DNA of 64,000 nt from Sphingomonas sp. 67-36 (GTDB lineage: Bacteria > Pseudomonadota > Alphaproteobacteria > Sphingomonadales > Sphingomonadaceae). The stretch is from assembly GCF_001897375.1 (NCBI RefSeq), contig NZ_MKSU01000002.1:29040-93039 (forward strand), in the 5' to 3' direction. The translations under genes were made by a program, and so were the position numbers. Below, one piece after another: positions 5,645-52,230 of this stretch. Positions within the stretch are counted from its first letter, which is position 1, and every line of letters starts with the position of its first letter. The notes below the pieces were generated by a model. That model did no database searches. It saw only the letters and a program-made list of their open reading frames with translations, and had not been told where the DNA came from.

Positions 5645-6927
5645 TGGCCAAGGTTCCAGCCATCCTCGGCGTTCATCTGCTGGACGAGGCGCGCGGTCCC
5701 GTGCGGGTGGGTACGTTGGCTCGGGATGCCGATGGCGGGGTCGCCTTCGCGGTCGCCGAATCCTACCTCCGTGACCCCGCCAGGCCGATCCTGAGCCTCG
5801 GTTGGTACGATCCCGACAGCGAGGACGGTACACGTGACCGGCTGGCGGCCCGGCGGGACAAGATCGGCCTGCATGGCTCGCTGCCGCCCTGGTTCTCGGG
5901 GTTGCTACCCGAAGGCGCGCTCCGCGAACTCGTCCTCAGCGAAATGGGGCCTGGTGACCATGACCAGTTCGACGTGCTGACCCGGCTCGGCGCCGACCTT
6001 CCCGGTGCGGTGCTGGTCGTCCCGGAAACGGGTATCCCGCCCTCCGCGGGACCTGTCACGCTGGAGACCATCGCAGGTTTCCAGGCGCCCCTTCCCGACG
6101 GAACAGTCAAATTCTCGCTGGCGGGCATCCAGCTCAAATTCACCGCCAACCCCGATGGTGACCGCCTGACCGTTCCGGGGCGTGGCGCCACAGGCCGCTG
6201 CATCATCAAGGCGCCGAGCGATCGCTTCCCCGGTCTGCCTGAAGCCGAATATGGCGCGATGCGTCTCGCCGAGATGATCGGCGTCAGAACCGCGCCCTGT
6301 CGTCTTGTCCCGCGAGACGCCATCGCGGGCATACCGCCGGAACTTCTCGCTCATGGCGGGAACGTCCTGGCCGTCGATCGTTTCGATCGCACGGCCGAGG
6401 GCCAGCGCATTCACATCGAGGATGCCGGCCAGATCGTCGGCGCGGTTGGCGACCGAAAATATACGATGGCCACCACCGAGACGGTCATCAACATGATCCG
6501 CCGCTTCAGCACGGATCGCCGCGACGACATATTGGAAGCGGTGCGGCGGATCGTCGCGGACGTGCTGCTCGGGAATGGCGACAACCACCTCAAGAACTGG
6601 TCGTTCATCTTTCCAGAGCCCGGACAGGTCCGCCTGTCACCAGCTTATGACATCGTGCCGACCTTCCTCTTTATCCCGGGCGACAGGATGGCGCTGCGTT
6701 TCGTGGGGACGCACCAGTTCGAGATCGTCAACCTGCATCGGTTCGAACGGGTGGCGAGCTTCGTCCAGGTCGATCCCAAATGGATCGCGCGCGAAGTCAA
6801 AGCTACCGTGCAGCGGGCCCTGGATCTCTGGCCGATGGCCGCGCCGGAACTGTTGGGTGAGGAGCGCGGCAATCGGATCATCGAACGGCTATCGACGCTG
6901 CAACTCGTCCGTGAAACCAGAGCATAA
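5644..6927 (+). CDS. hipA: HipA-family Ser/Thr kinase toxin, module 1
   Basis: SLAGIQLKF (equivalent to the SLAGAQxK motif), GNGDNHLKNWSF catalytic loop, 427 aa with the N-terminal HipA coupling region. Confidence 0.85.
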   Translation: MAKVPAILGVHLLDEARGPVRVGTLARDADGGVAFAVAESYLRDPARPILSLGWYDPDSEDGTRDRLAARRDKIGLHGSLPPWFSGLLPEGALRELVLSEMGPGDHDQFDVLTRLGADLPGAVLVVPETGIPPSAGPVTLETIAGFQAPLPDGTVKFSLAGIQLKFTANPDGDRLTVPGRGATGRCIIKAPSDRFPGLPEAEYGAMRLAEMIGVRTAPCRLVPRDAIAGIPPELLAHGGNVLAVDRFDRTAEGQRIHIEDAGQIVGAVGDRKYTMATTETVINMIRRFSTDRRDDILEAVRRIVADVLLGNGDNHLKNWSFIFPEPGQVRLSPAYDIVPTFLFIPGDRMALRFVGTHQFEIVNLHRFERVASFVQVDPKWIAREVKATVQRALDLWPMAAPELLGEERGNRIIERLSTLQLVRETRA

Positions 6928-9139: not shown

Positions 9140-9340
9140 ATGGTTCGATCGGCAGAAGAATTCGGCGCGGCGGTTACGCAGGCACGCAAGACTCTGGGGT
9201 TGACCCAGCGCGAGCTGGCGCTTGCCATCAACAGCGGCGAACGTTTCATTGTCGACCTTGAGGCGGGCAAGCCCACGGCGCAGCTTGGGAAGGCCCTGGC
9301 TGCCGCCCACGCTGTCGGGCTGCATCTGACGCTGGGCTGA
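9140..9340 (+). CDS. hipB: XRE-family HTH antitoxin (HipB-like), module 2
   Basis: ARKTLGLTQRELALAINSGERFIVDLEAG HTH; 66 aa; lies 3 nt upstream of hipA-2. Confidence 0.8.
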   Translation: MVRSAEEFGAAVTQARKTLGLTQRELALAINSGERFIVDLEAGKPTAQLGKALAAAHAVGLHLTLG

Positions 9341-9343
9341 TCG

Positions 9344-10645
9344 ATGCTGCTGCCTGTCCACTATTGCGATCGACCCGTCGCGACGATTCTGGCTGATGCT
9401 GATGACGTGCGCCTCAGCTACGACGCGAACTGGCTGACCGCACCCGATCGCTTTCCGATCTCGCTCACCATGCCGCTTGGCGATGCGCATTATGACGCCG
9501 CCACGATCCTGCCCTGGCTGATGAATCTGCTGCCCGAAGGCGAACCCCTGCGGGCAATGACACGTGCGCTGGGTGTCTCGGTGGAAGACGTGCTCGGCCT
9601 TATCATGGAGATTGGTAGCGATCTTGCCGGCGCGCTCTCCATCGGCTCCGCGGAACAGCAGGGATCGCCTGCCTATCGCGTCATTCCGGATGCCGCCGCG
9701 CTGGAACGCATCATTACCGACCTGCCGGCGCGCCCCTTTCTCGTCGGCGAAGACGGTGTCTCGATGAGCCTGGCCGGAGCGCAGGACAAGCTGCCGGTTG
9801 CTTTGCGCGGGGATCGGCTGGCTATTCCGGTCAATGGCGCGCCCTCCACACACATATTGAAGCCCGACAATCGTCGTCTGCCCGATAGCGTTCAGAATGA
9901 AGCGCTGTGCATGGTTCTCGCGCGCCGCATCGGATTACCGACCGCGCCTGTCACCACGGGCAGGGCCGGCGAGCGCTCCTATCTGCTGGTGACGCGCTAT
10001 GATCGTGAGATCGGCGAATATGACGCCCGTCGCATCCATCAGGAAGATTTCTGTCAGGCCCTGGGCCGGGTGCCCGCGGCCAAATATGAGCTCAACCGGA
10101 CTGGACGACATGGGCCATCGGTGGCGGATATGTTCGCACTGCTACGCCAGCACATGACCGCCCGCGATATCACCCGGCTTCTCGATGCCGTGATTTTCAA
10201 CATTGCGATCGGCAATGTGGATTCGCACGCCAAGAATTATTCCATTCTTCTGCCTGCTGAAGGCCCGAGCCTCGCACCGCTTTATGATCTGATGTCCGGC
10301 CTGGCCTGGGACGGGATCACGCAAAACCACGCCCAGGCCATCGGTGGCCAGCGCCGCGGACGGCATATTTATGGACGCCATTGGCAGCGCATGGCTGGCG
10401 CCTGCGGCCTCGCCGCAAAAGCTACGGTTCGCCGCGTTGGCGATGTCACGAAACGGCTGCTCCGTGAGTTGCCCGCCGCGACCGAAGAGGTCGCAAACAT
10501 GCCAGCAGGATCCGGGTTCATGCTCGGCACTTTCTCGCACGCAATCGAAGAACGCATCCGCGAAGTTCAGTTGCATGCACAGCAGGAAGGCGATGATGAT
10601 CAGTCAGGCGATGCAAGCGCGGCTATTGGCGATTCTGCTTACTGA
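9344..10645 (+). CDS. hipA: HipA-family Ser/Thr kinase toxin, module 2
   Basis: SLAGAQDKLPV, GNVDSHAKNYSIL, 433 aa. Confidence 0.85.
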   Translation: MLLPVHYCDRPVATILADADDVRLSYDANWLTAPDRFPISLTMPLGDAHYDAATILPWLMNLLPEGEPLRAMTRALGVSVEDVLGLIMEIGSDLAGALSIGSAEQQGSPAYRVIPDAAALERIITDLPARPFLVGEDGVSMSLAGAQDKLPVALRGDRLAIPVNGAPSTHILKPDNRRLPDSVQNEALCMVLARRIGLPTAPVTTGRAGERSYLLVTRYDREIGEYDARRIHQEDFCQALGRVPAAKYELNRTGRHGPSVADMFALLRQHMTARDITRLLDAVIFNIAIGNVDSHAKNYSILLPAEGPSLAPLYDLMSGLAWDGITQNHAQAIGGQRRGRHIYGRHWQRMAGACGLAAKATVRRVGDVTKRLLRELPAATEEVANMPAGSGFMLGTFSHAIEERIREVQLHAQQEGDDDQSGDASAAIGDSAY

Positions 10646-12140: not shown

Positions 12141-12905
12141 ATGGCCGAAGTCTTTGCGCCGCACGATCCCGACCGATGCTGTCTGTGCGGCTCGGCGCAG
12201 GACCTGACGGGCGAGCACAAGGTGAAGGCGTCGACGATCAGGTCGCTGTTCTCGGGCGAGCCGATGATGATCGGCACGTTCGACGAAGGGGCGCGTCCTC
12301 GTCGGGCGCAGAGCTCCAAGTCTAAGGCTTTCCACTTCCAGTCGAGGGTCTGCGCCGCCTGCAACTCGACGAGGACGCAGGACGCAGACGTCGAGTTCGC
12401 GCGCTTCGACGAGGCAGCGCGGGAGTTGCTCGCGCAGGGCGCCGATCCCGCAACCGCGTTCGATGATCCGCGCTACGCCCTGGGGAGCGCGCCTTACCTG
12501 AACGTCTTCCGGTATCTGGCGAAGGTTCTGGCCTGCCACATCGCGGAAGTGGGCGGTCCGCGCTTCACGGCTCTTGTGGACTTCGCGATCGGGCGCAGCG
12601 ACGCGAACCCCGTGAGCGTCCGCATGGGGGCGGACGGCCGGTTCCAGTTCTGGTTCGACCACACCGGCGATCCGGAGTTTGCCGGGCACGGCGGCCTCGG
12701 CGCCACGTTCTCGAAGCGCACCGGGCTGGCGAACGGCTTCGCGTCCTCGTTGACGCATGGGGCGCTCCGATACGAGTTCGGGATCAGCTTCAACTGGATG
12801 ATCGGCCTCCTCCTGCGCCTCCAGCACCCCACCTTCCACCAGCGTCTCGCCGAAGTCCGTCGCGATGCGCTTGCCGCTGCCGACAGCGCGTCCGAGGCCG
12901 CCTGA
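12141..12905 (+). CDS. hypothetical protein with an HNH-like treble-clef motif
   Basis: CCLCGSAQDLTGEHKV ... VCAACNSTR (CxxC..EH..CxxCN). GGAGGAGGA RBS immediately upstream of the ATG at 12141. Confidence 0.5.
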   Translation: MAEVFAPHDPDRCCLCGSAQDLTGEHKVKASTIRSLFSGEPMMIGTFDEGARPRRAQSSKSKAFHFQSRVCAACNSTRTQDADVEFARFDEAARELLAQGADPATAFDDPRYALGSAPYLNVFRYLAKVLACHIAEVGGPRFTALVDFAIGRSDANPVSVRMGADGRFQFWFDHTGDPEFAGHGGLGATFSKRTGLANGFASSLTHGALRYEFGISFNWMIGLLLRLQHPTFHQRLAEVRRDALAAADSASEAA

Positions 12906-12919
12906 CCCGGACGCATGGG

Positions 12920-13654
12920 CTAATTGTGGCTCACGCTGCCCATCGCGTAGCCCGAGCCGAACGACCCGCGCGCGGCATCGGCGGCGTCGGCCGACTTCAT
13001 GAAGAGGTCCAGATTGAGCGGGTGGCGGTGGATCTCTTCCGAGAACTTCGCGTCGGCGGCGGCCTCCGCCTCGATCGAGGCGGTGATCTCGGCCAGCTTT
13101 TCGTAGTAGACCGCACGCATTAGGTTCAACGCGGTCTCGATCTGCTGACGGGCGCGCCGCACGAGGTTTCGATCCACGGTCTGCCGCCTGGTCACCACGC
13201 CGACCTTCGCTTCCGCCCCGCTGAACTGGAGGATGACGAGCTCGGCCTGCCATTCGCCGCCGTAGCTTCCGCCGGAGCCGAAATGGGCGATCGCGCTGTC
13301 GCGCAGATCGCTCAGCTCCTTGTGGACGATCTTCTCCTCGTCGCCGAAGCGGGTTCGCAGATCGAAGCCGCCTCGTTCCTTCGACTCTGTCTTGGTCGCA
13401 CGGACGTAGAGCACGAGCGCGTTGTTGAGCAGCGCCGACTCGGTGATGAGCTTGCGGTGGTCGTCGGGATCGGCCGGAACGGTCAGCTCCGCCTCCAGCG
13501 CATCGATGCTCTCCATCGCCATCACGAGATCGGTCGACAGCGAATGGAGGTCGCGCGCGCGCCGGATCTGGTTCGCAAGCGGGATGAGCCGCTTCTCGGC
13601 GAAGAAGCGGTCGGCGAAGGCGGAGAGGTTGTAGGTCGGGTCCGGTGCGGTCAT
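12920..13654 (-). CDS. HEPN-like protein (Rx5H motif), paralogue of 28036-28773
   Basis: LYVRATKTESKERGG...HKELSDLRDSAIAH. The pattern LY.RAT...ERG...H....LR(D/N).A(I/M)AH is shared with the 28 kb gene. Confidence 0.55.
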   Translation of the reverse strand: MTAPDPTYNLSAFADRFFAEKRLIPLANQIRRARDLHSLSTDLVMAMESIDALEAELTVPADPDDHRKLITESALLNNALVLYVRATKTESKERGGFDLRTRFGDEEKIVHKELSDLRDSAIAHFGSGGSYGGEWQAELVILQFSGAEAKVGVVTRRQTVDRNLVRRARQQIETALNLMRAVYYEKLAEITASIEAEAAADAKFSEEIHRHPLNLDLFMKSADAADAARGSFGSGYAMGSVSHN

Positions 13655-13722
13655 CGCTGGAATTTAGGAGCGGGCGGGCGCACTTCAAACACATAGGGCT
13701 GGCACGGCGGAGGGATCGGGAG

Positions 13723-14553
13723 ATGGGCATGGCGGACCGCGAGGATAGGGCTACGGAGTTCGCGCGGTGGGATAGCTTTTCGCGCTTCGCGCGGCACGTC
13801 CGCTTCACCGGTCGATACGTCTGGGGCGACGAGGAAAGGGCCTTCCTGGAAACGGTGCTCGCAACGATCCACGACCGGGACGTGCATTTCAAGGAGGGGC
13901 GGACCTTCTACCGCGCCCAGCTCGGCGTCGATTTCCTCGATCAGAAGGACGAGGACGGCAACTGGACGGGCGAGGAGATCGTGGGATTCGGAGCCAAGCG
14001 GATGAAGCCTTTAACCGACCGCGTCCGCGAGGGAAGAGCGAACCCTATCGGCATACCGGCGCTCTACGTGGGCACGACCATCGAGACGGCGATATCGGAG
14101 GTGAGGCCCTGGATCGGTGCGGACGTCTCGCTCGCCTGGTGCCGGCTGGTGAAGCCCATGCGGACGCTCGACCTTACGCAGGGCCATGGCAGGACTTCGT
14201 TCGCCGGACCGGTGTTCCAGCATGTCATGGGCGGCCCGGACTTGACGCCGGCCGAAAAGGAGGAGGCCGTCTGGATCGACATCGACAACGCGTTTTCGGA
14301 GCCAGTCACTTCGACCGACGACCGCGCCGACTACGCGCCGACCCAGATATTGGCCGAGCTGTTCCGGAGCGCGGGATACGACGCGATCGGCTACAAGAGC
14401 CATTTCGGCGACGCCGGAGAGAAGCGTGGCTTCAACATAGCGATCTTCGATCCCGACGCCGTCGAGATCGTCGCCTGCGCGCCCTACCGAGTGGAGTCCA
14501 TCAAGGTCGAGGCCAAGCAGAACGGGAACGCCTGGTCCAAGGCCAGCGACTAG
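13723..14553 (+). CDS. RES-domain protein (NAD+-targeting toxin family) with an N-terminal extension of about 100 aa
   Basis: REGRANPIGIPALYVGTTIETAISEV (R..E), YAPTQILAELFRSAGYDAIGYKSHFG...GFNIAIFDP (S). GGAGGG RBS before the ATG at 13723. Confidence 0.7.
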   Translation: MGMADREDRATEFARWDSFSRFARHVRFTGRYVWGDEERAFLETVLATIHDRDVHFKEGRTFYRAQLGVDFLDQKDEDGNWTGEEIVGFGAKRMKPLTDRVREGRANPIGIPALYVGTTIETAISEVRPWIGADVSLAWCRLVKPMRTLDLTQGHGRTSFAGPVFQHVMGGPDLTPAEKEEAVWIDIDNAFSEPVTSTDDRADYAPTQILAELFRSAGYDAIGYKSHFGDAGEKRGFNIAIFDPDAVEIVACAPYRVESIKVEAKQNGNAWSKASD

Positions 14554-14762
14554 GCTGCCGCGTACCGGCGAGAACACCGTGGCGCTGGCGCCATCGGCGA
14601 TTTCGGGACCGCCGCTGATCTCGTGCAGCAAACCCGCCGTAATCTACCGCCGGGCGGTCGCGAACAAATTTCGCTGATACCGAACGGCGTAGCTGCGTGG
14701 AGCAACGTTCGCATTCTTGCCGACTATTTCGACTTCACTTGACGACTGTAGGGCAAGCGCTC

Positions 14763-15518
14763 CTACAGGAGCGCGGCGATGGCGTGGATCCATGCGGACA
14801 GCGTCTGAATGATCGAGTGGACCAGGACATGCAGAAAGGGCATCTCGGTCCAGATCTGCTCGCCCACCTCTTTGCCCAGACCGCCTAGGATGCCCGCTCC
14901 CACGGCGACGCCGGCCCATTTGCCGAAGCCTCCAAGCCTCGAGCCGAGCCCAGAGAAGCGATCACGCGCCTCCGTGAGCGTCGCGGCGTCGGCAGTGGTG
15001 ATGGCATCGGGCTTCACTAGCTCGCCGTGAACCGCGACGATGCTCTCTCGCAGACGCGCTATGTCGTCGTCGGTTAGCGTCAGCCGGAACTCGGTGGGCG
15101 GAGCGTTGTGCCCAATCATGCTGGAGAGCTGAGCTAGCCGCTCCAATGCCGCGTCGAGGGCGGAGAGCTGCTGTGGCAGCCGCTGCAGCATCGCCTCGAG
15201 GTCCTCTTGCTCGTCTTCGGGCGGCTCATCGTAAACGGGCTCGTGTTGCAGCCCGTAGGAGATGTCCTCAAGCAGCTCGTGCTCGCCGACGTCGGTCTCC
15301 TGCATGTTCTCGATGCCGATCGGATATTCCCAAAGACCCCACGCGAGGGTTCCTAGTTCCGGATGCTCAAAATCCGCCTGATAATGGACTTCGGGGCCCA
15401 TGTTGCGTTCGTCGGCGCCGATGGCCTCGAAGTCGAGCTCGTCGGCCTCGATCTCGTAGACGGCGCCCGTAGTGGCGTGTCGGATCCTCGCGGTCCCGCT
15501 GGCGGCGACGTAGGTCAT
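14763..15518 (-). CDS. hypothetical membrane-anchored protein (soluble N-domain, acidic linker, coiled coil, C-terminal hydrophobic helices)
   Basis: C-terminus GKWAGVAVGAGILGGLGKE...FLHVLVHSIIQTLSAWIHAIAALL. Start at 15518 (MTYVAAS) or 15554. Confidence 0.5.
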   Translation of the reverse strand: MTYVAASGTARIRHATTGAVYEIEADELDFEAIGADERNMGPEVHYQADFEHPELGTLAWGLWEYPIGIENMQETDVGEHELLEDISYGLQHEPVYDEPPEDEQEDLEAMLQRLPQQLSALDAALERLAQLSSMIGHNAPPTEFRLTLTDDDIARLRESIVAVHGELVKPDAITTADAATLTEARDRFSGLGSRLGGFGKWAGVAVGAGILGGLGKEVGEQIWTEMPFLHVLVHSIIQTLSAWIHAIAALL

Positions 15519-15591
15519 GTGGCGCAGGCTGCCGTTCGTAGTAGACAAAGGCAAGCATTCGGGTCGAGCCGAGTCTACGGGAGGGTCGCGC

Positions 15592-16428
15592 GTGGCGGGG
15601 ACTGAAGACGAGGGGAGGTTCTTCGATCACCGCATCAGCTTCGTGAATCACGCGGGCGAGCCTTCGTCACCGCTCGAGACGGTAGTCGCGATCGGGTTCT
15701 TCGATCCGACCATCGAGCTATTTCAGCCGTTCGCGACGGGCGTGTTCATCTCCGAAGTCGGACTCGTCTGCACTGCTAGGCACGTGCTCGAGTTCGAGCC
15801 CGCATTTCTGTCATCGATGCAGCATCTGTCGCCCCACAGCTTCGTCGCCGTGATGCAGCACTACGATGACCACACGATGGGCTATCGCGAGATCGTCGCG
15901 GCACATCCCCATCCGCGCTTCGACGTAGCGGTGGCGCGGCTGCAGCCGGTGGTCCATCTAAGGTCAGGAGAGAGCTTTTCGAACAAGGTGCTGGCGCTGA
16001 CCACCGACCGGTTCGAGATCGGCGACGCGGTCCACCAGTATTCGTATCCGGACCCGATCCTCTTCGATCAAGTCGACGGCCTGCAGCTCACGATGATTCC
16101 GCTGCTAACGGAAGGCAGGGTCATCGACTGGTTCCCGAAGGGCACGGGGAGCCTGTTCCCGTCGCCGTGCTACGTCATCGAAGGCTACATCGGAGCCGGC
16201 TCGAGCGGAGGTCCAGTGATGGATCGGACGGGCAGAGTGTTCGCCATAAGCTCGAGGGGCTGCACGGGCGGCGACTATTATTACGCCGTCCCGGTCCAGG
16301 CGATCGCCGACATCCGCATAACCTCCGTAATGCTCTCCTCGCCGCCCACAATCGAGGGGCCAACGGTGAAGGAGATGGTGTCGAGGGGCCTGATCTCCTT
16401 CGTCAAGCGTGTCGGCGAGGACGAATAA
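15592..16428 (+). CDS. trypsin-like (S1 family) serine protease with no signal peptide
   Basis: Catalytic triad context CTARHV (His), FDVAVARL (Asp), GAGSSGGPV (Ser). Likely GTG start at 15592 after GGGAGGG; the ORF track start is 15517. Confidence 0.7.
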   Translation: MAGTEDEGRFFDHRISFVNHAGEPSSPLETVVAIGFFDPTIELFQPFATGVFISEVGLVCTARHVLEFEPAFLSSMQHLSPHSFVAVMQHYDDHTMGYREIVAAHPHPRFDVAVARLQPVVHLRSGESFSNKVLALTTDRFEIGDAVHQYSYPDPILFDQVDGLQLTMIPLLTEGRVIDWFPKGTGSLFPSPCYVIEGYIGAGSSGGPVMDRTGRVFAISSRGCTGGDYYYAVPVQAIADIRITSVMLSSPPTIEGPTVKEMVSRGLISFVKRVGEDE

Positions 16429-16484
16429 CGCAACGGAGCGAGCGTCGGGACGCAATTCCGAGCGTAGGATGTTAGGGTGCGCAT

Positions 16485-17321
16485 ATGGCCGCCGAGGAGC
16501 ACAGGCTGCGCGTCGGGCGCTTGATCCGGGGAGATCGCAACGTCACCGATCTCGACCGGCTGTTCGCCGATCTCAGATTCGCGGATCCGGGGCGCCCGAC
16601 CGTCACCGAGATAGGAGACTTCGCCGCTCACCGCGAAGAGAGGAACAAGGGCATCGCGATGCGCCGCGTGGGCGACATCCAGATCAGCGCGCGCATTTGG
16701 GTGAGACAGCACTTTGGGATCGTCCCTTCGATCGAGGATACGAAGGCGGCGGGGTTCGCAAATCTGAAAATCGCCACCGACGAACAGATCCGAAGACGGT
16801 TGGGAACCAGCAGGCAGGTCGCCCGGTCGCAGTTCGTCCAGGGCCTCAAGCAGCTCGAGCTCGGGCGGTTGCCCAGTGCCAAGCAGAAGGCGGCCGTCAA
16901 TTATCTCGGAGGCAGTTTCGTCTGGCAGTTCGCTTTCGACGATGCGACGCTGGCGGGGGAATTCGCGGATGTTCTCATCGATTCTGGCGCCCTCGCCGCT
17001 TCGGATCGCGACGCCTTCCTCGGCATCGCGCCGTTCTTCGCTCTGCATGCGATCACGCTGATGCACGGCGCGCGCCTCGAACTTCCGGACGGGCAGTTCG
17101 CGCCCCTCCGGGCGGTCGTTCGTGACGAGACTGGGACGCTGCGGGTGGTGGCCGACGTGCCGGTTGAGAACTTCGGCAAGCCCATCGGCTGCATCGTGAC
17201 GATCTTCGAGACCGGGCTCGCTGCGGCAGATCATTGCGACGTCGATCTGCCCGGCGATCCGCACGCCACCATGTTCCCGTTGGAGATTGGCCGCGATGGG
17301 CGCCTCGTGGCGCTCGGATAG
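16485..17321 (+). CDS. hypothetical protein, co-directional with the protease (56 nt gap)
   Basis: 278 aa ORF with good third-position GC. Its stop TAG abuts the stop of the convergent SIR2 gene (TAGCTA at 17319-17324). Confidence 0.55.
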   Translation: MAAEEHRLRVGRLIRGDRNVTDLDRLFADLRFADPGRPTVTEIGDFAAHREERNKGIAMRRVGDIQISARIWVRQHFGIVPSIEDTKAAGFANLKIATDEQIRRRLGTSRQVARSQFVQGLKQLELGRLPSAKQKAAVNYLGGSFVWQFAFDDATLAGEFADVLIDSGALAASDRDAFLGIAPFFALHAITLMHGARLELPDGQFAPLRAVVRDETGTLRVVADVPVENFGKPIGCIVTIFETGLAAADHCDVDLPGDPHATMFPLEIGRDGRLVALG

Positions 17322-20300
17322 CTACCTGTTCTGTTCGCGCCGCGACAGCTCGGCCAGCCTAGGATCGTCCCGGACAGGTTCCTGCGCCTTGAGCGCGTCG
17401 AGCGTCCGGCGCGTCTCGTATGGCCACAGCCATGCGTCTTCGGGGAGAACCTTCCACAACAAGTCGAGGAGCTCTCGCGGATGCTGGGAGGCGATCCCTT
17501 CCTCCATGTCGATGAAGTGTCCCATTCGCACCGCCTGACCCGCGACCGCATCGAGCAGCGGTAGGATCGCATTGACGATCTCGACGAATCTGTCCGGCAT
17601 CGCCAGCGCCATGTCGACCAGCCTGCCTGACGTCTGAGGTGTCCGGACGGACCGCTGTCGTGGCCACACGCGTTCCAGGAAGGGAAGGATCCGGTCGCCC
17701 CATTTCGAGTCGGGCTCGTTCGACCACCGCTGCAGATACCACAGCATCTGGGTCCGCAGTTCGTCGTCGGCGTGAATCAGCACCTCGCGCAGTTCCACAT
17801 CGGGGATGAGCGCGTCGTCGTCGGTGGGGTCGTCGCTGCCGGCCCAGCCCGCGAGCAACATCCCGGCGAGCTTGTTGGCGTGGTCCCGGCGCTTCGCACC
17901 CGATCTAGCCAGCGCGATGAAGCCAGGCTTGAGGCGAGTGTAGAGCGGAAGCTGCGGCGTCCGGGCCGCCCAGAAATACCCTCCCCAGAAGGCCTGGGCG
18001 TCGGCATCGTCTCCGTCGGCGACAGTCAGCAGTCGTCTTTCGGTCCAGTCCGGGTCGATGAAGTAGAGCCAGTTCGAGTGCGGCGCGGTCATGGCGATCG
18101 CGTGCCGGCGCGCGTCGCCGGGGAGCGCGAGGAGCTGATCGAGCCGGGTCTTCCACTCGGCAGGCAGACCCTTATTCGAATTGAAGTCTGCCTTCGCCGG
18201 ATCCTTGAAGAGGGCATCGACCATGCGGCCGGCCGGCTGGTTGAGACCGTCATCGACCCATCCGGCGTCCGCTCGTCTGAACCGGTCCTTCGGCGGGTGG
18301 GCCGACAACGCGGCGACGAGCAAGTCCCACACCGCCTGGAACACGTCGGGAAGGTTGGTCAGTAGCCAAGTGGCGCGGTCGCAAATCCATTCGCTGACGG
18401 GATGCTGGAGCTCCGCGACTTTCTGCGGCCCAAGCCTGGCGAGCCGCGCCGCAATGGCGGTCAGCAGGCGTCGGTTGGGTTCGCCCTTGGCGGTTTCGTG
18501 CAGGAGAGCGGCCCATTCCCGCGCCGGAAACTCACCTTTGCGTGCGGCATCGGTCAGCACCGACAGCGCGAACGCGGGACGCCTTTCGGCCAGCCCGGAG
18601 AAGGGCCGGTGGTCGATGAAGGTCTCGAAGTCGCGGCCCGAGGCTTCGCGCACGGCGGCCAGCACCTCTCCGACCGGGAGCCCCTCCAGAGGAGTGGGGT
18701 CGGTGTCGGTCGGAATGCTGCGGACCTTGCCTACGTTCGGCTGGGCCGTGCGATCTGCGAACCTGGTCTCCCAATCGGGATTGTCTTTGCGCAGGTTGGT
18801 CATCTCGGCTTCCAGGCCGAAACCGAACTTCACTCCTTGAGCGCTCAGCCATTGAAGGCGGTTGAGGCGGTAGTGAGCCTTGATCCTGGCGAGATCGTCG
18901 CGGGGCTCTGGCCAGGGGAATGAGCCTGTCAGCAGACGGCGCTCGAGGTCCTGTCGACTCTTCGCGTCTAGGTCCGTCCATCTGTCGCGCAGTGCATACA
19001 GAAGGTCCCGTTCCTGCTGATCGGTCCAGAACGACTCGTCGTCGAGAGACAGAAACACCTCGGCGGCCTCGTGCGGATCGAGGATTGTGGGCTGGCCCGC
19101 CGCCCAGATCCGGAGGCGGTCGAAGACCGGATTCGAACCGGCCGGCCAGCGGCCGAACTCCTCCCTCGCCGCCGCGCGGTCGGCCTCTGCCAGGCGGACC
19201 ATCATGTTTACGAACGTCGCGAGGAGGCCGGTCAGTTGGAAACCGTCCTCGTCAGGCTGTTCTCCATCGTCCGCCCGCGTGGTGTCGAAGTAGATCCGGT
19301 CATGTCCGCCGATCTCGCGTTCGAGGACGATCGCATGCTCGATCTGGGCTCGAAGAAGCTGCAGCGCATAGCCGAGATGCTCCGGCGGGATGACGAGCGG
19401 CTCGTGCGGTCTCGGATACTTGACGTCCGGCCTGAGCACGTTCCCGATCGCCACTTCATCCTGGCCCGGAGGCAGTCGCGTGAGGATCGGCGGCTCGACG
19501 GTCAGCAGCGGACGATACATGTCGATCGTCGACCTGACCGCCGCCGTCGACCAGCCCGACTGGGCGACCACCGCCTCGATCTCGTAGCGCTGGCGATTGG
19601 GGTCTGGCGGGTCGGTGCGCCACGCGGCGATGAGCAGGCGCCATGCCTCTCGGATGGTCGCCGGAAAGCGATCCTGCTGCTGGCGCAGTGACCATTCGAG
19701 ATGCGACACGACGTCGGGATGCAGACCGTGCTGGTGCGCCGCCCACCAGATTGCGGCCGGCTGGTGGGCGACGCGGACCAGATACGCTCCAAGATGCCAG
19801 AGGCGGGTCGGCAGCTTCGAAGGGCGGCCGGCATCCGGACCCCGCAGCCGACCCGTCGCGTCCGGTGCCAGCCGCTCGCGATCGGCTTCGGTGGCGGCAA
19901 GCAGATCCCAAGCGTCCGCCGGAGCCTCGCGGCTGGAGAACCGGTCGTCGGGATCGGTCGTCGGTGGTGGTCGATCCGAGTCGAGACTTAGTAAATCGAA
20001 CGGATCGACGCGCTCGCTTCCTTCCACGTGAGGGTCTCGCGGGCCGGGAGGCGCGTAGCGCCTCTTCGGATCGAAGACGCAGAGCCATTCCGCCGGAAGA
20101 GGCGTTCCCTTGTCCGCCAGCCGCCGGGCGCCGTCGCGCGTCGCCGCAACGTGGGCGACGATACCCCGCTCGTGGGGCTGGAGGGCGCCCGGGCCGGCGG
20201 CCGCCATGGCGATGACCCTCTCGTGCCAGGCGTCCACGTCGCGCGCTCGGTCCGCCCATGCCCGCAAGGTCTCCCAGAGCGCAAAGTGGCCGTTGGCGCT

Positions 20301-21119
20301 GTCGTATGCGATGGGCTGCACGCCCTTATGCTTCCATTGCGCGGCGGCCTGGTCGATGCTGCCTGACTGGAAGGCGTAGAGGTCGTTCGGCCTGTCCTCC
20401 TCCCGGCTGAGCGCCTCCAGAAGATACTGGACCGGCGGATCGTCCGCCGAATACCCGACGAACACGATCTTGAAGCGTTGCAGCAGCGTCCGGATGTAGC
20501 GGGTTGCCCAGCCATCCGCGAGATACGCCCGGCCGAAGTCTGCGCTCGAAAGAACGAACTCGTTGTCGCAGGCGCGGCTATACTCGGCATCGACGCGGCC
20601 ATGGATGTGGATGACGCCCCTGAAGTCCGCCGGGCGCCGAGGATCGGGCAGATGCGGCGGATTGAACGAGCCGAGACCGGGGTCGCAGTCCTCGAACAGC
20701 CGGTCGAAGTTAGTGGTGATCAGCCTGACGACGTCCGCCGGATCGCGTGACAGGTCGAGCAAGGTGCGATGGGCGCCGAGCCCATGCCCGTGAGGAGGAA
20801 CCAGGGCCTTAGCGACGGCCTGGCGCACCTCTTCGGGGTAGAACTCCTGCTCTAGTAGGCCGAAGATCCGGTCGGTGGCGACGACGCCGGTGAGGCCGGT
20901 CGCCTTCTCGAAGTCCTGGCTCGCCGAGAACAATCGTCTGGCCGGGCTGTCGAGGGCGGAGCCCAGAGAGGACAGCACCCGGCCAGCAAGGCTGGGAAAA
21001 TTCGGCAGGTGTGCCTCAGCTTGCGAGACGCCCGCTCCGCAGAAGAACAGGACATGTCCGGCGTCGCGGGCGGTCAGCAGCTCGTCGGGTAGTTCCGGAC
21101 CGTCGGCAATAAACCTCAT
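17322..21119 (-). CDS. SIR2-like (SIR2_2 type) NADase-domain protein with a C-terminal helical region of about 950 aa; DSR-like single-gene defence candidate
   Basis: N-terminus LFFCGAGVSQ (Rossmann Gly loop), ITTNFDRLFE (Asn137), IHIHGR (His171/173), VFVGYSADDP. 1265 aa; no Walker A motif noticed by eye. Confidence 0.75.
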   Translation of the reverse strand: MRFIADGPELPDELLTARDAGHVLFFCGAGVSQAEAHLPNFPSLAGRVLSSLGSALDSPARRLFSASQDFEKATGLTGVVATDRIFGLLEQEFYPEEVRQAVAKALVPPHGHGLGAHRTLLDLSRDPADVVRLITTNFDRLFEDCDPGLGSFNPPHLPDPRRPADFRGVIHIHGRVDAEYSRACDNEFVLSSADFGRAYLADGWATRYIRTLLQRFKIVFVGYSADDPPVQYLLEALSREEDRPNDLYAFQSGSIDQAAAQWKHKGVQPIAYDSANGHFALWETLRAWADRARDVDAWHERVIAMAAAGPGALQPHERGIVAHVAATRDGARRLADKGTPLPAEWLCVFDPKRRYAPPGPRDPHVEGSERVDPFDLLSLDSDRPPPTTDPDDRFSSREAPADAWDLLAATEADRERLAPDATGRLRGPDAGRPSKLPTRLWHLGAYLVRVAHQPAAIWWAAHQHGLHPDVVSHLEWSLRQQQDRFPATIREAWRLLIAAWRTDPPDPNRQRYEIEAVVAQSGWSTAAVRSTIDMYRPLLTVEPPILTRLPPGQDEVAIGNVLRPDVKYPRPHEPLVIPPEHLGYALQLLRAQIEHAIVLEREIGGHDRIYFDTTRADDGEQPDEDGFQLTGLLATFVNMMVRLAEADRAAAREEFGRWPAGSNPVFDRLRIWAAGQPTILDPHEAAEVFLSLDDESFWTDQQERDLLYALRDRWTDLDAKSRQDLERRLLTGSFPWPEPRDDLARIKAHYRLNRLQWLSAQGVKFGFGLEAEMTNLRKDNPDWETRFADRTAQPNVGKVRSIPTDTDPTPLEGLPVGEVLAAVREASGRDFETFIDHRPFSGLAERRPAFALSVLTDAARKGEFPAREWAALLHETAKGEPNRRLLTAIAARLARLGPQKVAELQHPVSEWICDRATWLLTNLPDVFQAVWDLLVAALSAHPPKDRFRRADAGWVDDGLNQPAGRMVDALFKDPAKADFNSNKGLPAEWKTRLDQLLALPGDARRHAIAMTAPHSNWLYFIDPDWTERRLLTVADGDDADAQAFWGGYFWAARTPQLPLYTRLKPGFIALARSGAKRRDHANKLAGMLLAGWAGSDDPTDDDALIPDVELREVLIHADDELRTQMLWYLQRWSNEPDSKWGDRILPFLERVWPRQRSVRTPQTSGRLVDMALAMPDRFVEIVNAILPLLDAVAGQAVRMGHFIDMEEGIASQHPRELLDLLWKVLPEDAWLWPYETRRTLDALKAQEPVRDDPRLAELSRREQNR

Positions 21120-21962
21120 CGAAGTATACTAGGCGTCGAACGCGTGGTGCGGGAAGTCCGGCGTTTTAAAATATCGATTTCGGTGATGCCGATACGGTAT
21201 ATTGCGAGCAGGCCAGCAGCTCTTACTAAACGATGTCGGCATTCGCGTTAGGTCACTGGATAAACGCTGACCGTAAAAGGCCTACGCCAGACCCACCCGG
21301 CCTAAACGGAAAGCCCTACCTCGAATGTCTGCTTCGCGACTATCTCGTCCAAAAGCTGTCTGTCTGGAAGCGGCCCAGCTTCAGTCGTAACGCGACGCCG
21401 CGCGGACAAGCGTTGAACGTCAGCTTCCGACAAGAGCCGACGTTCAAGCTGTGGCATGGGAACGACGGGTTTGTCCCCAGATCCAGCCATTCGGATAATT
21501 GCGAAGCCGCCTGGCAGCTAAGCGCCCCAATAGCGGCCATTCAATCCGATGAGGCACGGCCCCGAAACTTGTCGTTTGTTCGTGATGCGCGGCGCGATGA
21601 CCGGGGCCGGCTGACTTTGGATCCGCGTCAACGCCTGGTTGCTAAGCGTACACTCTCCTGTCAGATCGATACATGATGACGGGGTTAATCGAAAAAGACG
21701 AGAAGGGCGAAACTGTCGTCAGACCAGTGCGGTGGTCAGAGTTTTCGCTCGCGGAGATCATCAAACCGTCATCTTTCATATGCTGGTGGCTGGATCGTTC
21801 ATCGCAGTTTATGCGGTCATCCTCATAAGCGCCCGTGAGACGGGGCTGTACACGCGGCTCCGAGTCTTCGGACGAGTTTTCACGACGTTCGAACACCCCC
21901 GCTGGGGGAGTGTTGGCGACGGATCAGCGCTGCGGACAAAATTCGCCCAGTATGCGACCCTG

Positions 21963-22199
21963 ATGCTCGGTCTTTTCTTATCGCTATGCCTGGCTAGTTG
22001 CTCGAAGCCGCCGCCGGATCGGCCCGGGGTGCAGCAGGATCAATTCAAGCCAGCCTATTGGCCGGTGTCCTTGCTCAAAGGCGTCTATCTCGGGGGTGTG
22101 CGATGTTCCTCTGCAACTTGCCGCGCGGGCGATGCGTCGCGGGCTTTCCTGAGGACGGCTGTTGGGTCGAGTTCTCCAAACGCGCTTCTGATCAGGTAA
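21963..22199 (+). CDS. small lipoprotein-like ORF, possibly broken
   Basis: MLGLFLSLCLASCSKPPPD carries a lipobox (L-A-S-C). A protein-like continuation sits in another frame (22103-22363), suggesting a frameshift. Confidence 0.25.
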   Translation: MLGLFLSLCLASCSKPPPDRPGVQQDQFKPAYWPVSLLKGVYLGGVRCSSATCRAGDASRAFLRTAVGSSSPNALLIR

Positions 22200-22428
22200 C
22201 CCGTATCATAAAGCAGCGGGATCGGCGTCTATATGGAGAGTATTGGTTTGAAGGAGCGGGTCGAGTGGCGTGGCAACCAGGCAATTTTGGTCATCTGGGG
22301 ACGTACAATTGGCACCTGAAAGCGGCCACTGGTGGAATCCGCGCTCTTCACGTGAGACCCTGACAAATCGTTCCGGATCGAAGTGGAACAAATGGCGATC
22401 ACGCAACACTTCGTGCTAGATCGCAACG

Positions 22429-25400
22429 ATGATCAGCGACGAACTTGTATCCCAGGATGACCTCGACCTCGAAGACGTGTTCGCCATGCTCGGCGCCTTC
22501 AGCGGTGGGGGTTATGGCGGGCTCGACCAAATGCTTGGCAAGCGGCCTGACATCGTCCGTCGGCTGCAGGCATTGTCGCCGCAGGCAGCCACCACCTTCG
22601 GCGCGCTGTTGACGGTTCCAGAGCTGCAGGCGAGCTCGGCGCGGATCGAGGCGATGGTCCATTTGGCCGTCGCCTATGCGCAGGGCACGCAAGCGCCGAG
22701 CAGCCGCCTCACGCACGACCTTTACCACCATGTCGGGTCGGTCGCCGGGCATCTCGAGGATCCGGCCGAGGATCTGATGATCGAGGCGGTGCGCGGTCCC
22801 TGGGGCAACTTCCGGGTAGTTGCCGGCCTTTGGGAGGGGGGCGGCTTCTTTTTGCAGCGCTTCCTCGATGTCATCGCCCATATGCCCGAAGGCGAACCGT
22901 TCGAAAGCGTCCAGCGGCCGGTCATCGCATTGCTCAAGCTGTCCGAAGAATTATGCGCGCGGGGCGGTCTCGCACGGCACGCACTTGGTGCCGAGATGCC
23001 GCTCAGGGCGGTCGCGAAGGAGCAGCTCGGCAGATGGATGCGGGGCCGATCATGGCTCTCCTTCTCCGACTCCGACCTCGATCGGCTGGGGATCGTTCCG
23101 GACGATCTTGCACCCTTCGTGTCGACCACCGCCGACAAACCAGTTTTGTTGTCGAGCGCGCTCGGCAACACGGTGCTCGAACGCCGCCCGCTGATCGCAG
23201 CCGGCGGCGAATATCATCTGGTCCTTCCGAACGCTGTTACCGCTGCGATTCGCTACTGGGTCATCGACGCGCTCACCCGCCTAGGCCGCCGCACCGACCT
23301 CTGTCGCGCGCTCAGCCTCAGCTACGCGCAGCTGTTCAACGAGATTCAGCTGCTCGGCGGCGCCTCGAGTGCGGTGCTTGACTTCGAGCCCGACGGTGGC
23401 GCGTTGGTCGCCGAAACCATGATCCGGTTCGACACCGGGCGGACCATCCACTTCCTGTTCTTTACCGACACGCTCGATGACATCGACGAGACGGGCCTGT
23501 CCGGCCTCAACCCGGCGGGCGTCACGCTTGGCGAGATGTTCGAGAAACGGATCGCGGCGCGCTATAGCCAGGCCGCAGGAGACCCCGATTACAAGGAAGG
23601 CATGACGCTGCTGGTCGGCTGCGGCATCGGCCGCGCATCTGCAGTCTCGTTCGGTGGTGACGATCATCCCGGTTGGCGGGTTGAGAGCTGTCCTGCCCAT
23701 GACCTGCTCGCGCTGAGCCTGCTCCACCGCTTCCGCACCGCCAATCTCTGGCGAATCCTGGAAGCGCGCGACCGCATCCGGTCGCTTGGCCTGCGCTTGC
23801 CCAACGTCAATGGCTTGCTAAACCTCGTCTCTTGGTCGCGATCGCTTGGCGGCCATCTCGTACCCCATGCCGAGGTTCCCGAGGCCTCGGCCGGCGGCGG
23901 TACTGTACTACTGATGGCCCAGAACGGTCTTCGCGAATTGCGGCAGGAGGCGGCGCTTGAAGCCGATTTCCGTGTCGGACGGTTCGTCGATGGCAATTGG
24001 CTGCGGCTTCGCCGCGACGCGCCCTCTGTGTTCGACGATGACCGCCGCGCTCCCGTCTATGGCAGCGAGGATCCGGGCCGGCATGACAAGCCGATGATCG
24101 CCTACGTCTCCGACCACCGGGACTGGTGGGCGGATGTTGAAAGTCCCGAGCAGGCCGGCGGCACCGTCGCCTATGAGCGGTGGCGGATGGCGAGCGTCTG
24201 GCTGTCGCGTGCCGCGCCGCGGCTGGAGCAGAAGCTAGATCTGCCCGCCGGTCCGATACTGTGGGACCTGATCTTCGAAGGCGATCTGAGCGATCGCCGT
24301 CTCGTGCACGATCGGCTGACCTATGACGCGGCACGGGCCGCGATCCGGGTTGAGATCGACCCTGCTCGATCGACGATCGTCACCCGCATCGGCAGCGACT
24401 TCGACAAGGCGCTGTTCCACCCGCAGAACATCGCCGAGCGCGCGCTAGTCGCAGCGCTAATTAGCGGCGCCGCCCAGCTCGCGGGAGAGGTCGATCCCGA
24501 CGCGATCACGGATGCGCTGCTCGGCGAGATCGTGACCAGTCCGGAAGCGCGGCACAGCCATGCCTTCGCGCAGCGCAGCTTTCGCGATCATGTCCGCACC
24601 CATGATGCGGGCAACCAGCTCATTCGCATCACGCGCGAGGATGATGCCTATACGCGGCTCAATCTCGGCTGGAGCGTCCGCGAACGGTCGGAGGGCGCGA
24701 CGATCCTCGGCAAGGCCGACTGTACCGCGTTCCTCAATGCGGTCGTCACGCATCTCCAGGACGAATTGCTCGAGATGCTACGAGGATATGACCGTCGCCA
24801 GATGCTCGAGCGCCTGCTGCGCAATCATGAGCTGGCTATCGACGACCGCGATCGGTGGACGCGGACGTCATCGGCGCTGATCGCGCTCCATGGCCGCACG
24901 CCTGAAACGCTCGCTCGCCTGATCAAGGCCGAGCAGAGCTTGAACGCCGTCTTCCAGGCGACTCGCATCCTCGTCGAGATGGCGATCTGCGAATGTCCGC
25001 TCGCCGGCGGCGCGCGACCGGGCCGGCTCGACATCTCGCTGTTGATGGCGAAGTCGACCCTCCTGTTCGAGATCGGCGGCTGGTCCGACGCAGTGCGCTG
25101 GGACGTGATGAAACCCGATATTCGGATCACGCCGCTCGGCGACATCCATGCCAATTTCGGCTTCTACGACGAGATCATCATCCCGCACGCCAACGCCACC
25201 GGTGAAGAGCGGATCGAACGAGCGATCACCGGCTATGCGAAGAACCTGGAGGAGCGACCGACGTCCGAAAGCGTGCAAGGCGAGCTCGAGCACGATTTTG
25301 CCGAAGCCTGGGTTGAACAGATCGGGGCAACGATCGACGAAGTCCGGCTGTTCGTCGATTCCGTCGAACAGATAGGCATCGAAGAGGATGCGCAGGTTAT

Positions 25401-26211
25401 CCGGGTGACGCGCGACCGCTTTAAGGAAATGCGGGTCGGCGATGCTTCGATCGGTGATGTGACGGCCGGGCGCATCCTCGCGACCCTCACGCTTACCTCG
25501 CGCGATAGTTGGCGCGACGTACCACAGGGCTTCGAGGAGCGGGATCGCCATCCGTGGCGCTTCCGGCGGCAATTGTCATTCCTGCGCCGCCCGATCCTCG
25601 ACTGGGATCCTGCCGGCGACATGCTGCTCGTCGCGCCCGGCATGCTGCGCGACAGCCTTGTCTATATGTATTCGCTCTACGAGAGCGGCGACTTCCCCGG
25701 CAGCCAGCTCACGCCCAAGATGGCGGCCTGGCGCGGGATCGCGAACGGGCGGCGTGGCACGATATTCGCTGAGGAAGTGGCCGAGGCTATGCGCGCCAAT
25801 GGATGGCACGCCGAGGTCGAGGTCAAGGTGACCAAGCTGCTTCGGCGCGGTTTCGACAAGGACTATGGCGATGTCGACGTGCTGGCGTGGCGTGACGACG
25901 GCCGCGTACTCGCGATCGAGTGCAAGGATGTCCAGTTCCGCAAGACGCTAGGCGAAATGGCGGAGCAGCTCAGCGATTTTCGCGGCGAGATTCGCTCGAA
26001 CGGCAAGCGCGACGAGCTGCGTAAGCATCTGGACCGATTGGAGGTCATTCGGAAGCACCTGCCGCTAGTCGCCACCTATGTTGGACGACCGTCGCTAGAT
26101 GCGATCGAGAGCCATCTCCTGTTCCGCAATCCAGTCCCGATGGAGTTCGCGCTCGCCAGGATGGCGGGCCAAGTCCAGGTGAGCAATTTTGGGGCGATAG
26201 CGTCGATCTAA
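22429..26211 (+). CDS. 1260 aa protein of unknown function with a C-terminal PD-(D/E)xK (restriction-endonuclease-fold) motif
   Basis: FAEEVAEAMRANGWHAEVEVKV...YGDVDVLAWRDDGRVLAIECKD (D1150, E1164, K1166; AAG for K1166 at 25924-25926). The N-terminal ~1100 aa show no motif I recognise. Confidence 0.7.
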   Translation: MISDELVSQDDLDLEDVFAMLGAFSGGGYGGLDQMLGKRPDIVRRLQALSPQAATTFGALLTVPELQASSARIEAMVHLAVAYAQGTQAPSSRLTHDLYHHVGSVAGHLEDPAEDLMIEAVRGPWGNFRVVAGLWEGGGFFLQRFLDVIAHMPEGEPFESVQRPVIALLKLSEELCARGGLARHALGAEMPLRAVAKEQLGRWMRGRSWLSFSDSDLDRLGIVPDDLAPFVSTTADKPVLLSSALGNTVLERRPLIAAGGEYHLVLPNAVTAAIRYWVIDALTRLGRRTDLCRALSLSYAQLFNEIQLLGGASSAVLDFEPDGGALVAETMIRFDTGRTIHFLFFTDTLDDIDETGLSGLNPAGVTLGEMFEKRIAARYSQAAGDPDYKEGMTLLVGCGIGRASAVSFGGDDHPGWRVESCPAHDLLALSLLHRFRTANLWRILEARDRIRSLGLRLPNVNGLLNLVSWSRSLGGHLVPHAEVPEASAGGGTVLLMAQNGLRELRQEAALEADFRVGRFVDGNWLRLRRDAPSVFDDDRRAPVYGSEDPGRHDKPMIAYVSDHRDWWADVESPEQAGGTVAYERWRMASVWLSRAAPRLEQKLDLPAGPILWDLIFEGDLSDRRLVHDRLTYDAARAAIRVEIDPARSTIVTRIGSDFDKALFHPQNIAERALVAALISGAAQLAGEVDPDAITDALLGEIVTSPEARHSHAFAQRSFRDHVRTHDAGNQLIRITREDDAYTRLNLGWSVRERSEGATILGKADCTAFLNAVVTHLQDELLEMLRGYDRRQMLERLLRNHELAIDDRDRWTRTSSALIALHGRTPETLARLIKAEQSLNAVFQATRILVEMAICECPLAGGARPGRLDISLLMAKSTLLFEIGGWSDAVRWDVMKPDIRITPLGDIHANFGFYDEIIIPHANATGEERIERAITGYAKNLEERPTSESVQGELEHDFAEAWVEQIGATIDEVRLFVDSVEQIGIEEDAQVIRVTRDRFKEMRVGDASIGDVTAGRILATLTLTSRDSWRDVPQGFEERDRHPWRFRRQLSFLRRPILDWDPAGDMLLVAPGMLRDSLVYMYSLYESGDFPGSQLTPKMAAWRGIANGRRGTIFAEEVAEAMRANGWHAEVEVKVTKLLRRGFDKDYGDVDVLAWRDDGRVLAIECKDVQFRKTLGEMAEQLSDFRGEIRSNGKRDELRKHLDRLEVIRKHLPLVATYVGRPSLDAIESHLLFRNPVPMEFALARMAGQVQVSNFGAIASI

Positions 26212-28773: not shown

Positions 28774-29152
28774 CTGGGTTGGGCGCTTCGATGGAGGTCG
28801 AGCCATAACACATGGGCGATGGTGTCCATCCCGTCCGCCGAGCTGCCATCTGGAACCGGCGATGCTGGCCAACCTGAATGACAGACAGCTATTGGGCTTC
28901 CAAAATGGACCCCTGGATGACGGTTAAGTCAGCGGCTCCTTTCACACAAGGATGCAGGGGGAACGGCAGCTATAGCTTTCCGCCATCCCAAGACCTGTCA
29001 GACAGCAAGCGGCAAGAGCTGACGCTCGACCTGCGGCAACGGAACGTCGGGTTTGTCCCAAAGCAGGTCGATAAGCCGGCCGCGACAGCTTCATGAATGA
29101 AGGGCAGGTTTCAGGGACCCGCTTTCGGCCGTCGAATGCGCCTATCGGGGCG

Positions 29153-52146: not shown

Positions 52147-52230
52147 TATCCGATCTCCAAACAGCCTCGCTGTGGAAGATAGAAACGATCGGTGCCGGTT
52201 TCGAGATGCCGCGCGCATGGGCGCAGGCAT

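Follow-up and report, generated by a model that had tools for sequence, protein, structure and literature searches.

A probable stand-alone anti-phage protein from a divergent sister clade of the DSR1 family in Sphingomonas sp. 67-36

Analysis of a 64,000-nucleotide stretch of Sphingomonas sp. 67-36 DNA (contig NZ_MKSU01000002.1, positions 29,040 to 93,039; hereafter the window) identified a gene whose product of 1265 amino acids (aa) is probably a stand-alone anti-phage protein of the DSR1 family. The protein falls in a divergent sister clade of canonical Dsr1, and its N-terminal SIR2 NADase would be released by a C-terminal solenoid that senses a phage protein. The assignment is carried by collinear homology to Dsr1 along the whole protein and by a SIR2 domain in which the predicted catalytic residues are invariant.

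The gene and its homology to Dsr1

The open reading frame (ORF) at 17322-21119 on the minus strand, proposed in an initial annotation made from the sequence alone, was confirmed by ORF calling and translation. The motifs read in that annotation were found where it had placed them: FFCGAGVS at aa 25, TTNFD at aa 135 (with Asn137), HIHGR at aa 171 (with His171 and His173) and FVGYSADDP at aa 220. The absence of a Walker A motif was also confirmed, the pattern [GA]xxxxGK[ST] not being found in the 1265 aa. An exact-sequence look-up showed the protein to be identical to OJV34356.1 / WP_293864248.1, which is labelled 'SIR2 family protein', and the identical protein is present on 23 public contigs. 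The features of the locus are as follows.

17322-21119, minus strand: DSR1-like gene, 1265 aa (ORF and translation, PADLOC Dsr1, NCBIfam Dsr1, hhalign)
20220-21119, minus strand: predicted N-terminal SIR2 (NADase-type) effector domain, about aa 1-300 (Pfam, AlphaFold, Foldseek)
20709-20711, minus strand: codon of Asn137 (in TTNFD), predicted catalytic Asn (invariant in the clade; aligns with Dsr1 Asn127)
20601-20603, minus strand: codon of His173 (in HIHGR), predicted catalytic His (invariant in the clade; aligns with EcDsr1 His166)
19200-20219, minus strand: middle region, aa 301-640, helical (structure model; aligned to Dsr1 profile-to-profile)
17325-19199, minus strand: C-terminal alpha-solenoid region, aa 641-1265, presumed phage-protein sensor (Dsr1 model, blastp, AlphaFold)
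21120-21374, minus strand: 5' flank co-inherited with the gene, presumed promoter and 5' untranslated region (homologous DNA in Sphingomonas melonis and Croceicoccus)

The sequence is a real gene and not a chance ORF of high-GC DNA, because it encodes a SIR2_2 match, its protein has more than 2200 homologues, the ratio of nonsynonymous to synonymous substitutions (dN/dS) is 0.13-0.16 in all three regions when compared with five orthologues, and the GC content at third codon positions (GC3) is 0.80, as in other genuine genes of the window. The gene is under purifying selection (dN/dS about 0.14).

Searches with hidden Markov models (HMMs) returned the PADLOC Dsr1 models PDLC02183 (E 7.8e-91) and PDLC04167 (E 6.2e-84), in two stretches each; the PADLOC matches given here are at the HMM level, before the coverage rules of PADLOC. 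The sole meaningful NCBIfam match was the Dsr1 equivalog model NF041818, with 409 bits against a curated cut-off of 1400. Since the best reported stretch of this match covered only aa 1-350, aa 351-1265 were searched separately. In this search, aa 632-1254 matched NF041818 positions 637-1254 collinearly (E 4e-54), and positions 603-1271 of the PADLOC Dsr1 model were matched with an E value of 4.7e-38.

Canonical Dsr1 proteins for comparison were taken from annotated Dsr1 genes of plasmid and chromosome records. Blastp against the 1275-aa E. coli Dsr1 aligned aa 1-491 with 1-463 (30% identity, E 1e-47) and aa 639-1261 with 649-1272 (23.6% identity, E 4e-25), and against an Agrobacterium Dsr1 it gave a single high-scoring segment over aa 83-1264 (E 5e-62). 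When a 30-sequence profile of the window's clade was aligned by hhalign with a 5-sequence profile of canonical Dsr1, the alignment extended from the first residue to the last helices (probability 100%, E 2.6e-99, 1197 columns, 25% identity). The middle region is the part most divergent from canonical Dsr1: single-sequence searches with the Dsr1 HMM miss it, whereas the profile-profile comparison aligns it.

These results point to collinear, full-length homology of the C-terminal ~950 aa with the C-terminal region of DSR1. The initial annotation had left these residues unassigned and considered that they might define a new family; because of the collinear HMM, blastp and hhalign matches, they are assigned here to the DSR1 C-terminal region, and that suggestion is abandoned.

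The rest of the protein was modelled with AlphaFold. The model of aa 300-1265 is almost entirely helical, with a few short strands and a predicted local distance difference test score (pLDDT) of 87.1, in agreement with the helical character noticed earlier; a Pro-rich, poorly structured segment lies within it at about aa 355-435. The region beyond the SIR2 domain is thus confidently predicted to fold as an alpha-solenoid. Foldseek comparison of this sensor model with the PDB yielded nothing more specific than HEAT/ARM solenoids (mTOR, DNA-PKcs, CAND1, importins and PP2A-A) with TM scores of at most 0.26, and no DSR2 chain appeared among the top 50 matches. Such generic matches are compatible with, and no proof of, a bilobed TPR-type sensor as in Dsr1 and Avs7.

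The same searches would suit a new family of SIR2 defence proteins in which the C-terminal sensor is related to neither DSR1 nor DSR2: Pfam and single-sequence PDB searches were empty for the C-terminal 950 aa (phmmer against PDB sequences found nothing), and the solenoid matches are generic. We give this explanation practically no weight, since it is refuted by the separate C-terminal matches to the NCBIfam and PADLOC Dsr1 models and by the blastp and hhalign alignments described above.

The SIR2 domain and the proposed mode of action

The SIR2_2-type N-terminus recognised in the initial annotation was supported by a Pfam SIR2_2 match at aa 133-270 (nt 20310-20723, E 7e-18) and by the alignment of both predicted catalytic residues. 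An AlphaFold2 model of aa 1-420, built from a 57-sequence alignment, had a pLDDT of 87.6 and a predicted TM score of 0.88. In a Foldseek search, the closest PDB folds to this model were all defence SIR2 NADases (KomC, EcThsA, DSR2 and the Avs5 SIR2 domain), with E values from 1e-10 to 1e-8; KomC gave E 1.8e-10 and a TM score of 0.73 on the target, and DSR2, the comparison proposed at the outset, was among the matches at E about 1e-9.

Asn137 is invariant in 57/57 and in 30/30 clade members in two alignments, and His173 in all aligned clade members. Asn137 aligns with the invariant Asn127 of canonical Dsr1, and TTNFD with TTNYD of KomC. The 'lHG' of the clade profile aligns with FHG of KomC, where His146 is the residue mutated in 9xvc, KomC(H146N). 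Since His173 aligns with this KomC His146 and with His166 of EcDsr1, which is invariant in canonical Dsr1, it is predicted to be the catalytic His in preference to His171. Comparison of the clade profile with PDB sequences gave short SIR2-motif matches to KomC and ThsA only, which are informative for the catalytic residues and not for the sensor.

A SIR2 domain could in principle serve as a deacylase, an ADP-ribosyltransferase or an inactive regulatory module with a housekeeping or mobile-element function. Inactive sirtuin domains do exist in conflict systems, and a neighbour of one relative of the gene matches Pfam iSirtuin. We regard this alternative as very unlikely: the classical sirtuin deacylase (CobB/Sir2) model NF001752 was matched with 10.7 bits (E 0.27; cut-off 221), the closest folds belong without exception to defence NADases, both predicted catalytic residues are invariant, the distribution is patchy and horizontally transferred, with island contexts, and the protein is homologous to a family with demonstrated NAD+ depletion (10.1101/2021.12.14.472415).

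In the explanation that we favour, the SIR2 domain would be an NAD+ glycohydrolase effector with Asn137 and His173 as its catalytic residues. The remaining alpha-solenoid of ~950 residues would keep the NADase silent until a phage-made protein binds to it; binding would free the NADase activity, NAD+ would fall and phage replication would stop. We infer NAD+ depletion on infection, sensing by the C-terminal region and a capsid-protein trigger from published work on canonical DSR1. Garb et al. described NAD+ depletion and protection by DSR1 in Bacillus, the depletion being unusually transient and the culture not collapsing (10.1101/2021.12.14.472415). Osterman et al. described detection of the phage by the DSR1 C-terminal domain, followed by activation of the N-terminal SIR2 domain (10.1101/2024.02.11.579819). 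A 2026 preprint described the Dsr1 sensor as bilobed and homologous to the TPR sensor of Avs7, and the toxicity of E. coli Dsr1 as triggered uniquely by the major capsid protein of phage ZL19 (PMC12803255). The suggestion in the initial annotation that the C-terminal region may be the phage sensor agrees with this work on DSR1 (PMC12803255; 10.1101/2024.02.11.579819). The identity of the trigger for the window's clade is the weakest step of the explanation.

Several observations weigh against this proposal. The published experiments concern canonical DSR1, and the function of the window's clade would follow by homology; identity to the tested Dsr1 proteins is 20-27%, and the NF041818 cut-off is missed widely (409 against 1400 bits). 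At this distance, with identity in the sensor down to about 23%, the window protein may differ from canonical Dsr1 in its trigger specificity and even in whether NAD+ depletion is transient or infection is abortive. No TPR or other repeat family of Pfam matched the C-terminal region at E<=1, and the PDB copy searched included neither an Avs7 nor a Dsr1 structure for comparison with a bilobed sensor. In addition, no sigma-70-like promoter site was found on the minus (coding) strand upstream of the gene.

The sister clade and the genomic setting of the gene

Canonical Dsr1 controls scored 2057 and 1424 bits with NF041818, compared with 343-461 bits for five relatives from the window's clade (from Klebsiella, Serratia, Pseudidiomarina, a planctomycete and an actinobacterial metagenome-assembled genome). 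The Serratia member matches the Dsr1 model in a single stretch (1-1273 with 1-1259). In a neighbour-joining tree, canonical Dsr1 and the window's clade part at the midpoint. Canonical Dsr1 proteins share 43-81% identity with one another and members of the window's clade at least 31%; between the two groups identity is 20-27%. For the window protein, identity to canonical Dsr1 is 30% in the SIR2 domain and about 23.5% in the sensor.

In view of this split, the protein is unlikely to be a canonical DSR1, which would make it an equivalog of the E. coli and Bacillus proteins that have been tested and would imply that it shares their trigger and outcome. Its length, domain order, end-to-end profile homology and PADLOC Dsr1 matches are those expected of such an equivalog; the score of 409 bits lies far below the cut-off, the scores are bimodal with canonical proteins at 1424-2057 bits, the tree and the identities separate the two groups, and the NCBI name is only 'SIR2 family protein', as it is for all members of the clade. 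We therefore describe the clade, as the sequence comparisons indicate, as a divergent group of large size that is sister to the canonical Dsr1 equivalogs, with a known family membership and not a new architecture. According to the initial annotation, a full-length match to DSR1 or DSR2 would make the protein a known system, and the choice between the two could not be made by eye. The DSR1 match largely makes it one, the relationship being a remote one, and the choice falls on DSR1 by full-length homology; no PADLOC Dsr2 model was matched at E<=1. That the ~1265-aa clade is a functionally distinct DSR1 subtype, triggered by another phage protein or capsid class or leading to another outcome, is possible and in our view somewhat doubtful.

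At least 347 loci of the clade were confirmed among the first 599 pattern matches listed for GTDB species representatives. They occur mainly in Alpha- and Betaproteobacteria, and also in Gamma- and Deltaproteobacteria, Planctomycetota, Latescibacterota, Bacteroidota, Verrucomicrobiota and Actinobacteria. A search with the sensor only, over 1.84 billion representatives, gave 1738, 1073 and 503 clusters at 50% identity for E<=1e-3, 1e-10 and 1e-30, respectively. Among the best 150 sensor matches, all full-length proteins measure about 1245-1300 aa and carry the sensor at about 640-1265; the matches show this same ~1265-aa architecture or are fragments, and other architectures, including Avs7-type fusions, were not found among them.

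One candidate for a fusion of the sensor to an alternative effector, a 606-aa 'hypothetical protein' of an Enterobacter hormaechei plasmid (NZ_CP056156.1, 4947-6767), was rejected. It corresponds to the sensor part only (aa 615-1189, E 7e-41), and because IS3-family transposases lie on both sides it was interpreted as a fragment of a Dsr1-like gene that insertion sequences have cut short.

The NCBI Dsr1 equivalog model thus covers only one branch of a much larger family whose architecture is constant. The second branch, common among environmental Proteobacteria and also present outside them, is transferred horizontally as a one-gene cassette and at present carries no annotation more specific than the SIR2 label. 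Since the model captures one branch, defence-system censuses based on strict models would under-count DSR1-type NAD+-depleting immunity.

Copies of the window protein with 92-93% identity were found in Sphingomonas melonis, Croceicoccus sp. BE223 and Erythrobacter sp. R86502, and Sphingobium indicum is in the same 90% cluster. DNA homology to the S. melonis and Croceicoccus loci covers 17228-21374 (the gene and 255 bp upstream) and 12869-14606, a block made up of a RES gene and an adjoining divergent gene of 244 aa; homology to the Erythrobacter locus covers 17322-21215 only, with 96 bp upstream of the gene. The gene could be delimited in 71 relatives' loci, which supplied 125 neighbouring proteins of 180 aa or longer; none of the Pfam families in this set was represented more than three times. 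Strong PADLOC matches in the relatives' neighbourhoods were to several unrelated defence proteins, namely SoFic (twice), Avs2, the reverse transcriptase and phosphoribosyltransferase of a type III-A retron, a CBASS cyclase with a phospholipase effector, Hhe, HamC and several PDC candidates; AbiJ, integrases and transposases were further neighbours. Such a pattern is that of a one-gene defence cassette which is self-contained and moves horizontally, and it supports the single-gene character proposed in the initial annotation: the near-identical copies have in common only the gene and 96-255 bp upstream, with the RES block in addition in two of the three, and no partner is conserved in the 71 loci.

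The neighbours of the gene in the window could nevertheless suggest a multi-gene system, formed with a divergent Upx homologue or with the convergent 278-aa and trypsin-like genes. They adjoin the gene both in the window and on the 23 public contigs with the identical protein, and TAGCTA at 17319-17324 contains the abutting stop codons of the DSR1-like gene and of the convergent 278-aa ORF (16485-17321), as described initially. We consider a system of this kind highly improbable, less probable still than a SIR2 domain outside immunity. The copies in the three other genera lack the Upx, 278-aa and trypsin-like genes; neither the Upx homologue nor the 278-aa neighbour was found near the gene in any of 80 relatives' loci; the 278-aa and trypsin-like genes lie within a lineage-specific insert (14607-17227), and no neighbour is conserved in the 71 loci; and Upx itself has been published as a single-protein system (PMC13099982).

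The DSR1-like gene is separated from the next long gene, which starts at 22429, by a spacer of 1309 bp with a GC content of 0.57, lower than the 0.66-0.68 of the gene. The initial annotation had described a non-coding-looking spacer here; the gap was confirmed, and it is not featureless, as it contains the 255 bp inherited with the gene, a sphingomonad repeat of about 110 bp and an ORF of 139 aa. No Rfam match was obtained in the spacer (21120-22428), where RNA families, terminators and promoters were sought. The element of ~110 bp, at 21371-21483, starts at the very point where the homology with S. melonis and Croceicoccus ends, and it has counterparts of 84-86% identity in unannotated parts of plasmids from Sphingobium yanoikuyae and Sphingomonas sanxanigenens. 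A partial copy of 50 bp lies at 29010-29059 in the same orientation, so that the two copies bracket a block of Upx, 350-aa and 245-aa genes. The element may be an insertion scar or a repeat resembling repetitive extragenic palindromes. The spacer ORF (21780-22199, plus strand) is called as a 139-aa gene in one JGI assembly, shows a lipobox-like LCLASC after a hydrophobic stretch, has a GC3 of only 0.60 and occurs in no contigs other than those identical to the window; a small lipoprotein gene, either decayed or of foreign origin, is a possible reading.

The Upx homologue (22429-26211, plus strand, 1260 aa) is full-length and is transcribed divergently from the DSR1-like gene. It matched the PADLOC Upx model over 42-1246 (E 2.5e-215), carries Pfam Upx-like in precomputed annotation and scored 826 bits against an NCBIfam equivalog cut-off of 1900. 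Upx is a dual-nuclease, terminase-sensing single-protein defence (PMC13099982, PMC13601566).

On the other side, the 2.6 kb of 14607-17227 are an insertion that the S. melonis and Croceicoccus loci lack, with a 251-aa gene (minus strand), the trypsin-like gene and the 278-aa gene of 16485-17321, whose protein matched no family. The trypsin-like protease (278 aa, Pfam Trypsin_2, E 9e-11) showed weak PADLOC similarity to the protease part of RT-Protease_XI. The insertion could be an uncharacterised protease-based defence cassette.

Beyond this insertion, within 12920-14553, lie the RES-domain gene (13723-14553, plus strand, Pfam RES, E 2e-17) and the divergent 244-aa gene, which has no family match. 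In S. melonis and Croceicoccus this pair directly adjoins the Dsr1-like gene, with 92-98% identity, and it gave no PADLOC match. RES proteins were recently reported as an NAD+-degrading defence, aRES (10.64898/2026.01.28.702374); hence, two NAD+-targeting systems may sit side by side.

The GC content is ~0.61 over 1-34 kb and ~0.69 over 34-64 kb of the window, and it changes exactly at a tRNA-Gly(GCC) gene (34222-34296, minus strand). By the position of this tRNA gene, the defence genes belong to a tRNA-associated genomic island, and the window ORFs that were scanned included no integrase. The Upx homologue, the RES-domain gene and the low-GC island ending at tRNA-Gly are in agreement with a location in a defence island. 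Two separate toxin-antitoxin modules of the HipB/HipA type (helix-turn-helix protein and HipA kinase) are also present in the island, at 5294-6927 and 9140-10645. A Xanthobacter relative likewise has a tRNA-Gly-like sequence, which follows its Dsr1-like gene at a distance of 3.8 kb downstream. An Rfam mmgR (suhB family) small RNA at 52223-52300 (minus strand, 51 bits), in the core part of high GC, is consistent with an alphaproteobacterial host.

Comparison with known systems

The effectors ThsA, KomC, Avs5 and SIR2-HerA are activated by a signalling nucleotide (through a SLOG domain), by partner proteins or by an NTPase module. The window protein resembles them in its predicted defence-type SIR2 NADase fold and catalytic Asn/His pair, and differs in that the SLOG domain, the partner proteins and the NTPase module are all absent. 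No PADLOC match to ThsA or ThsB was obtained for the window protein or 10 neighbours, and none to AVAST or HerA systems for the protein or its neighbours; the sequence match to ThsA is marginal and confined to SIR2 (E 0.09).

DSR2 of Bacillus subtilis is a protein of about 1000 aa, in which a SIR2 domain is followed by a HEAT-like C-terminal domain that binds the phage tail tube protein. It shares with the window protein the SIR2 fold and the fusion of a SIR2 effector to an alpha-solenoid sensor in one polypeptide. The lengths differ (about 1000 against 1265 aa), the resemblance is limited to the SIR2 domain and, since PADLOC Dsr2 models gave no match, the window protein is not considered DSR2-like.

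Avs7 is a STAND NTPase whose TPR sensor, common to Dsr1, binds the phage major capsid protein (PMC12803255). The window protein has no STAND NTPase domain, in keeping with the missing Walker A motif. Both place an effector at the N-terminus and a protein sensor at the C-terminus, and a solenoid of the Avs7 type would be expected in the window protein by transitivity through Dsr1.

Compared with DSR1, aa 350-630 of the window protein cannot be aligned by single-sequence searches, the score lies below the NF041818 cut-off and the protein belongs to a separate clade. The gene would be a further example of a known mechanism and reveals no new one. DSR1 itself is overcome by the phage pathways NARP1 and NARP2. 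Like DSR1, it encodes a single polypeptide of about 1265-1275 aa with an N-terminal SIR2_2 domain, the same GAG, TTNFD, HG and GYS motifs and collinear homology to the last helices, and it is a single-gene system that lacks an NTPase.

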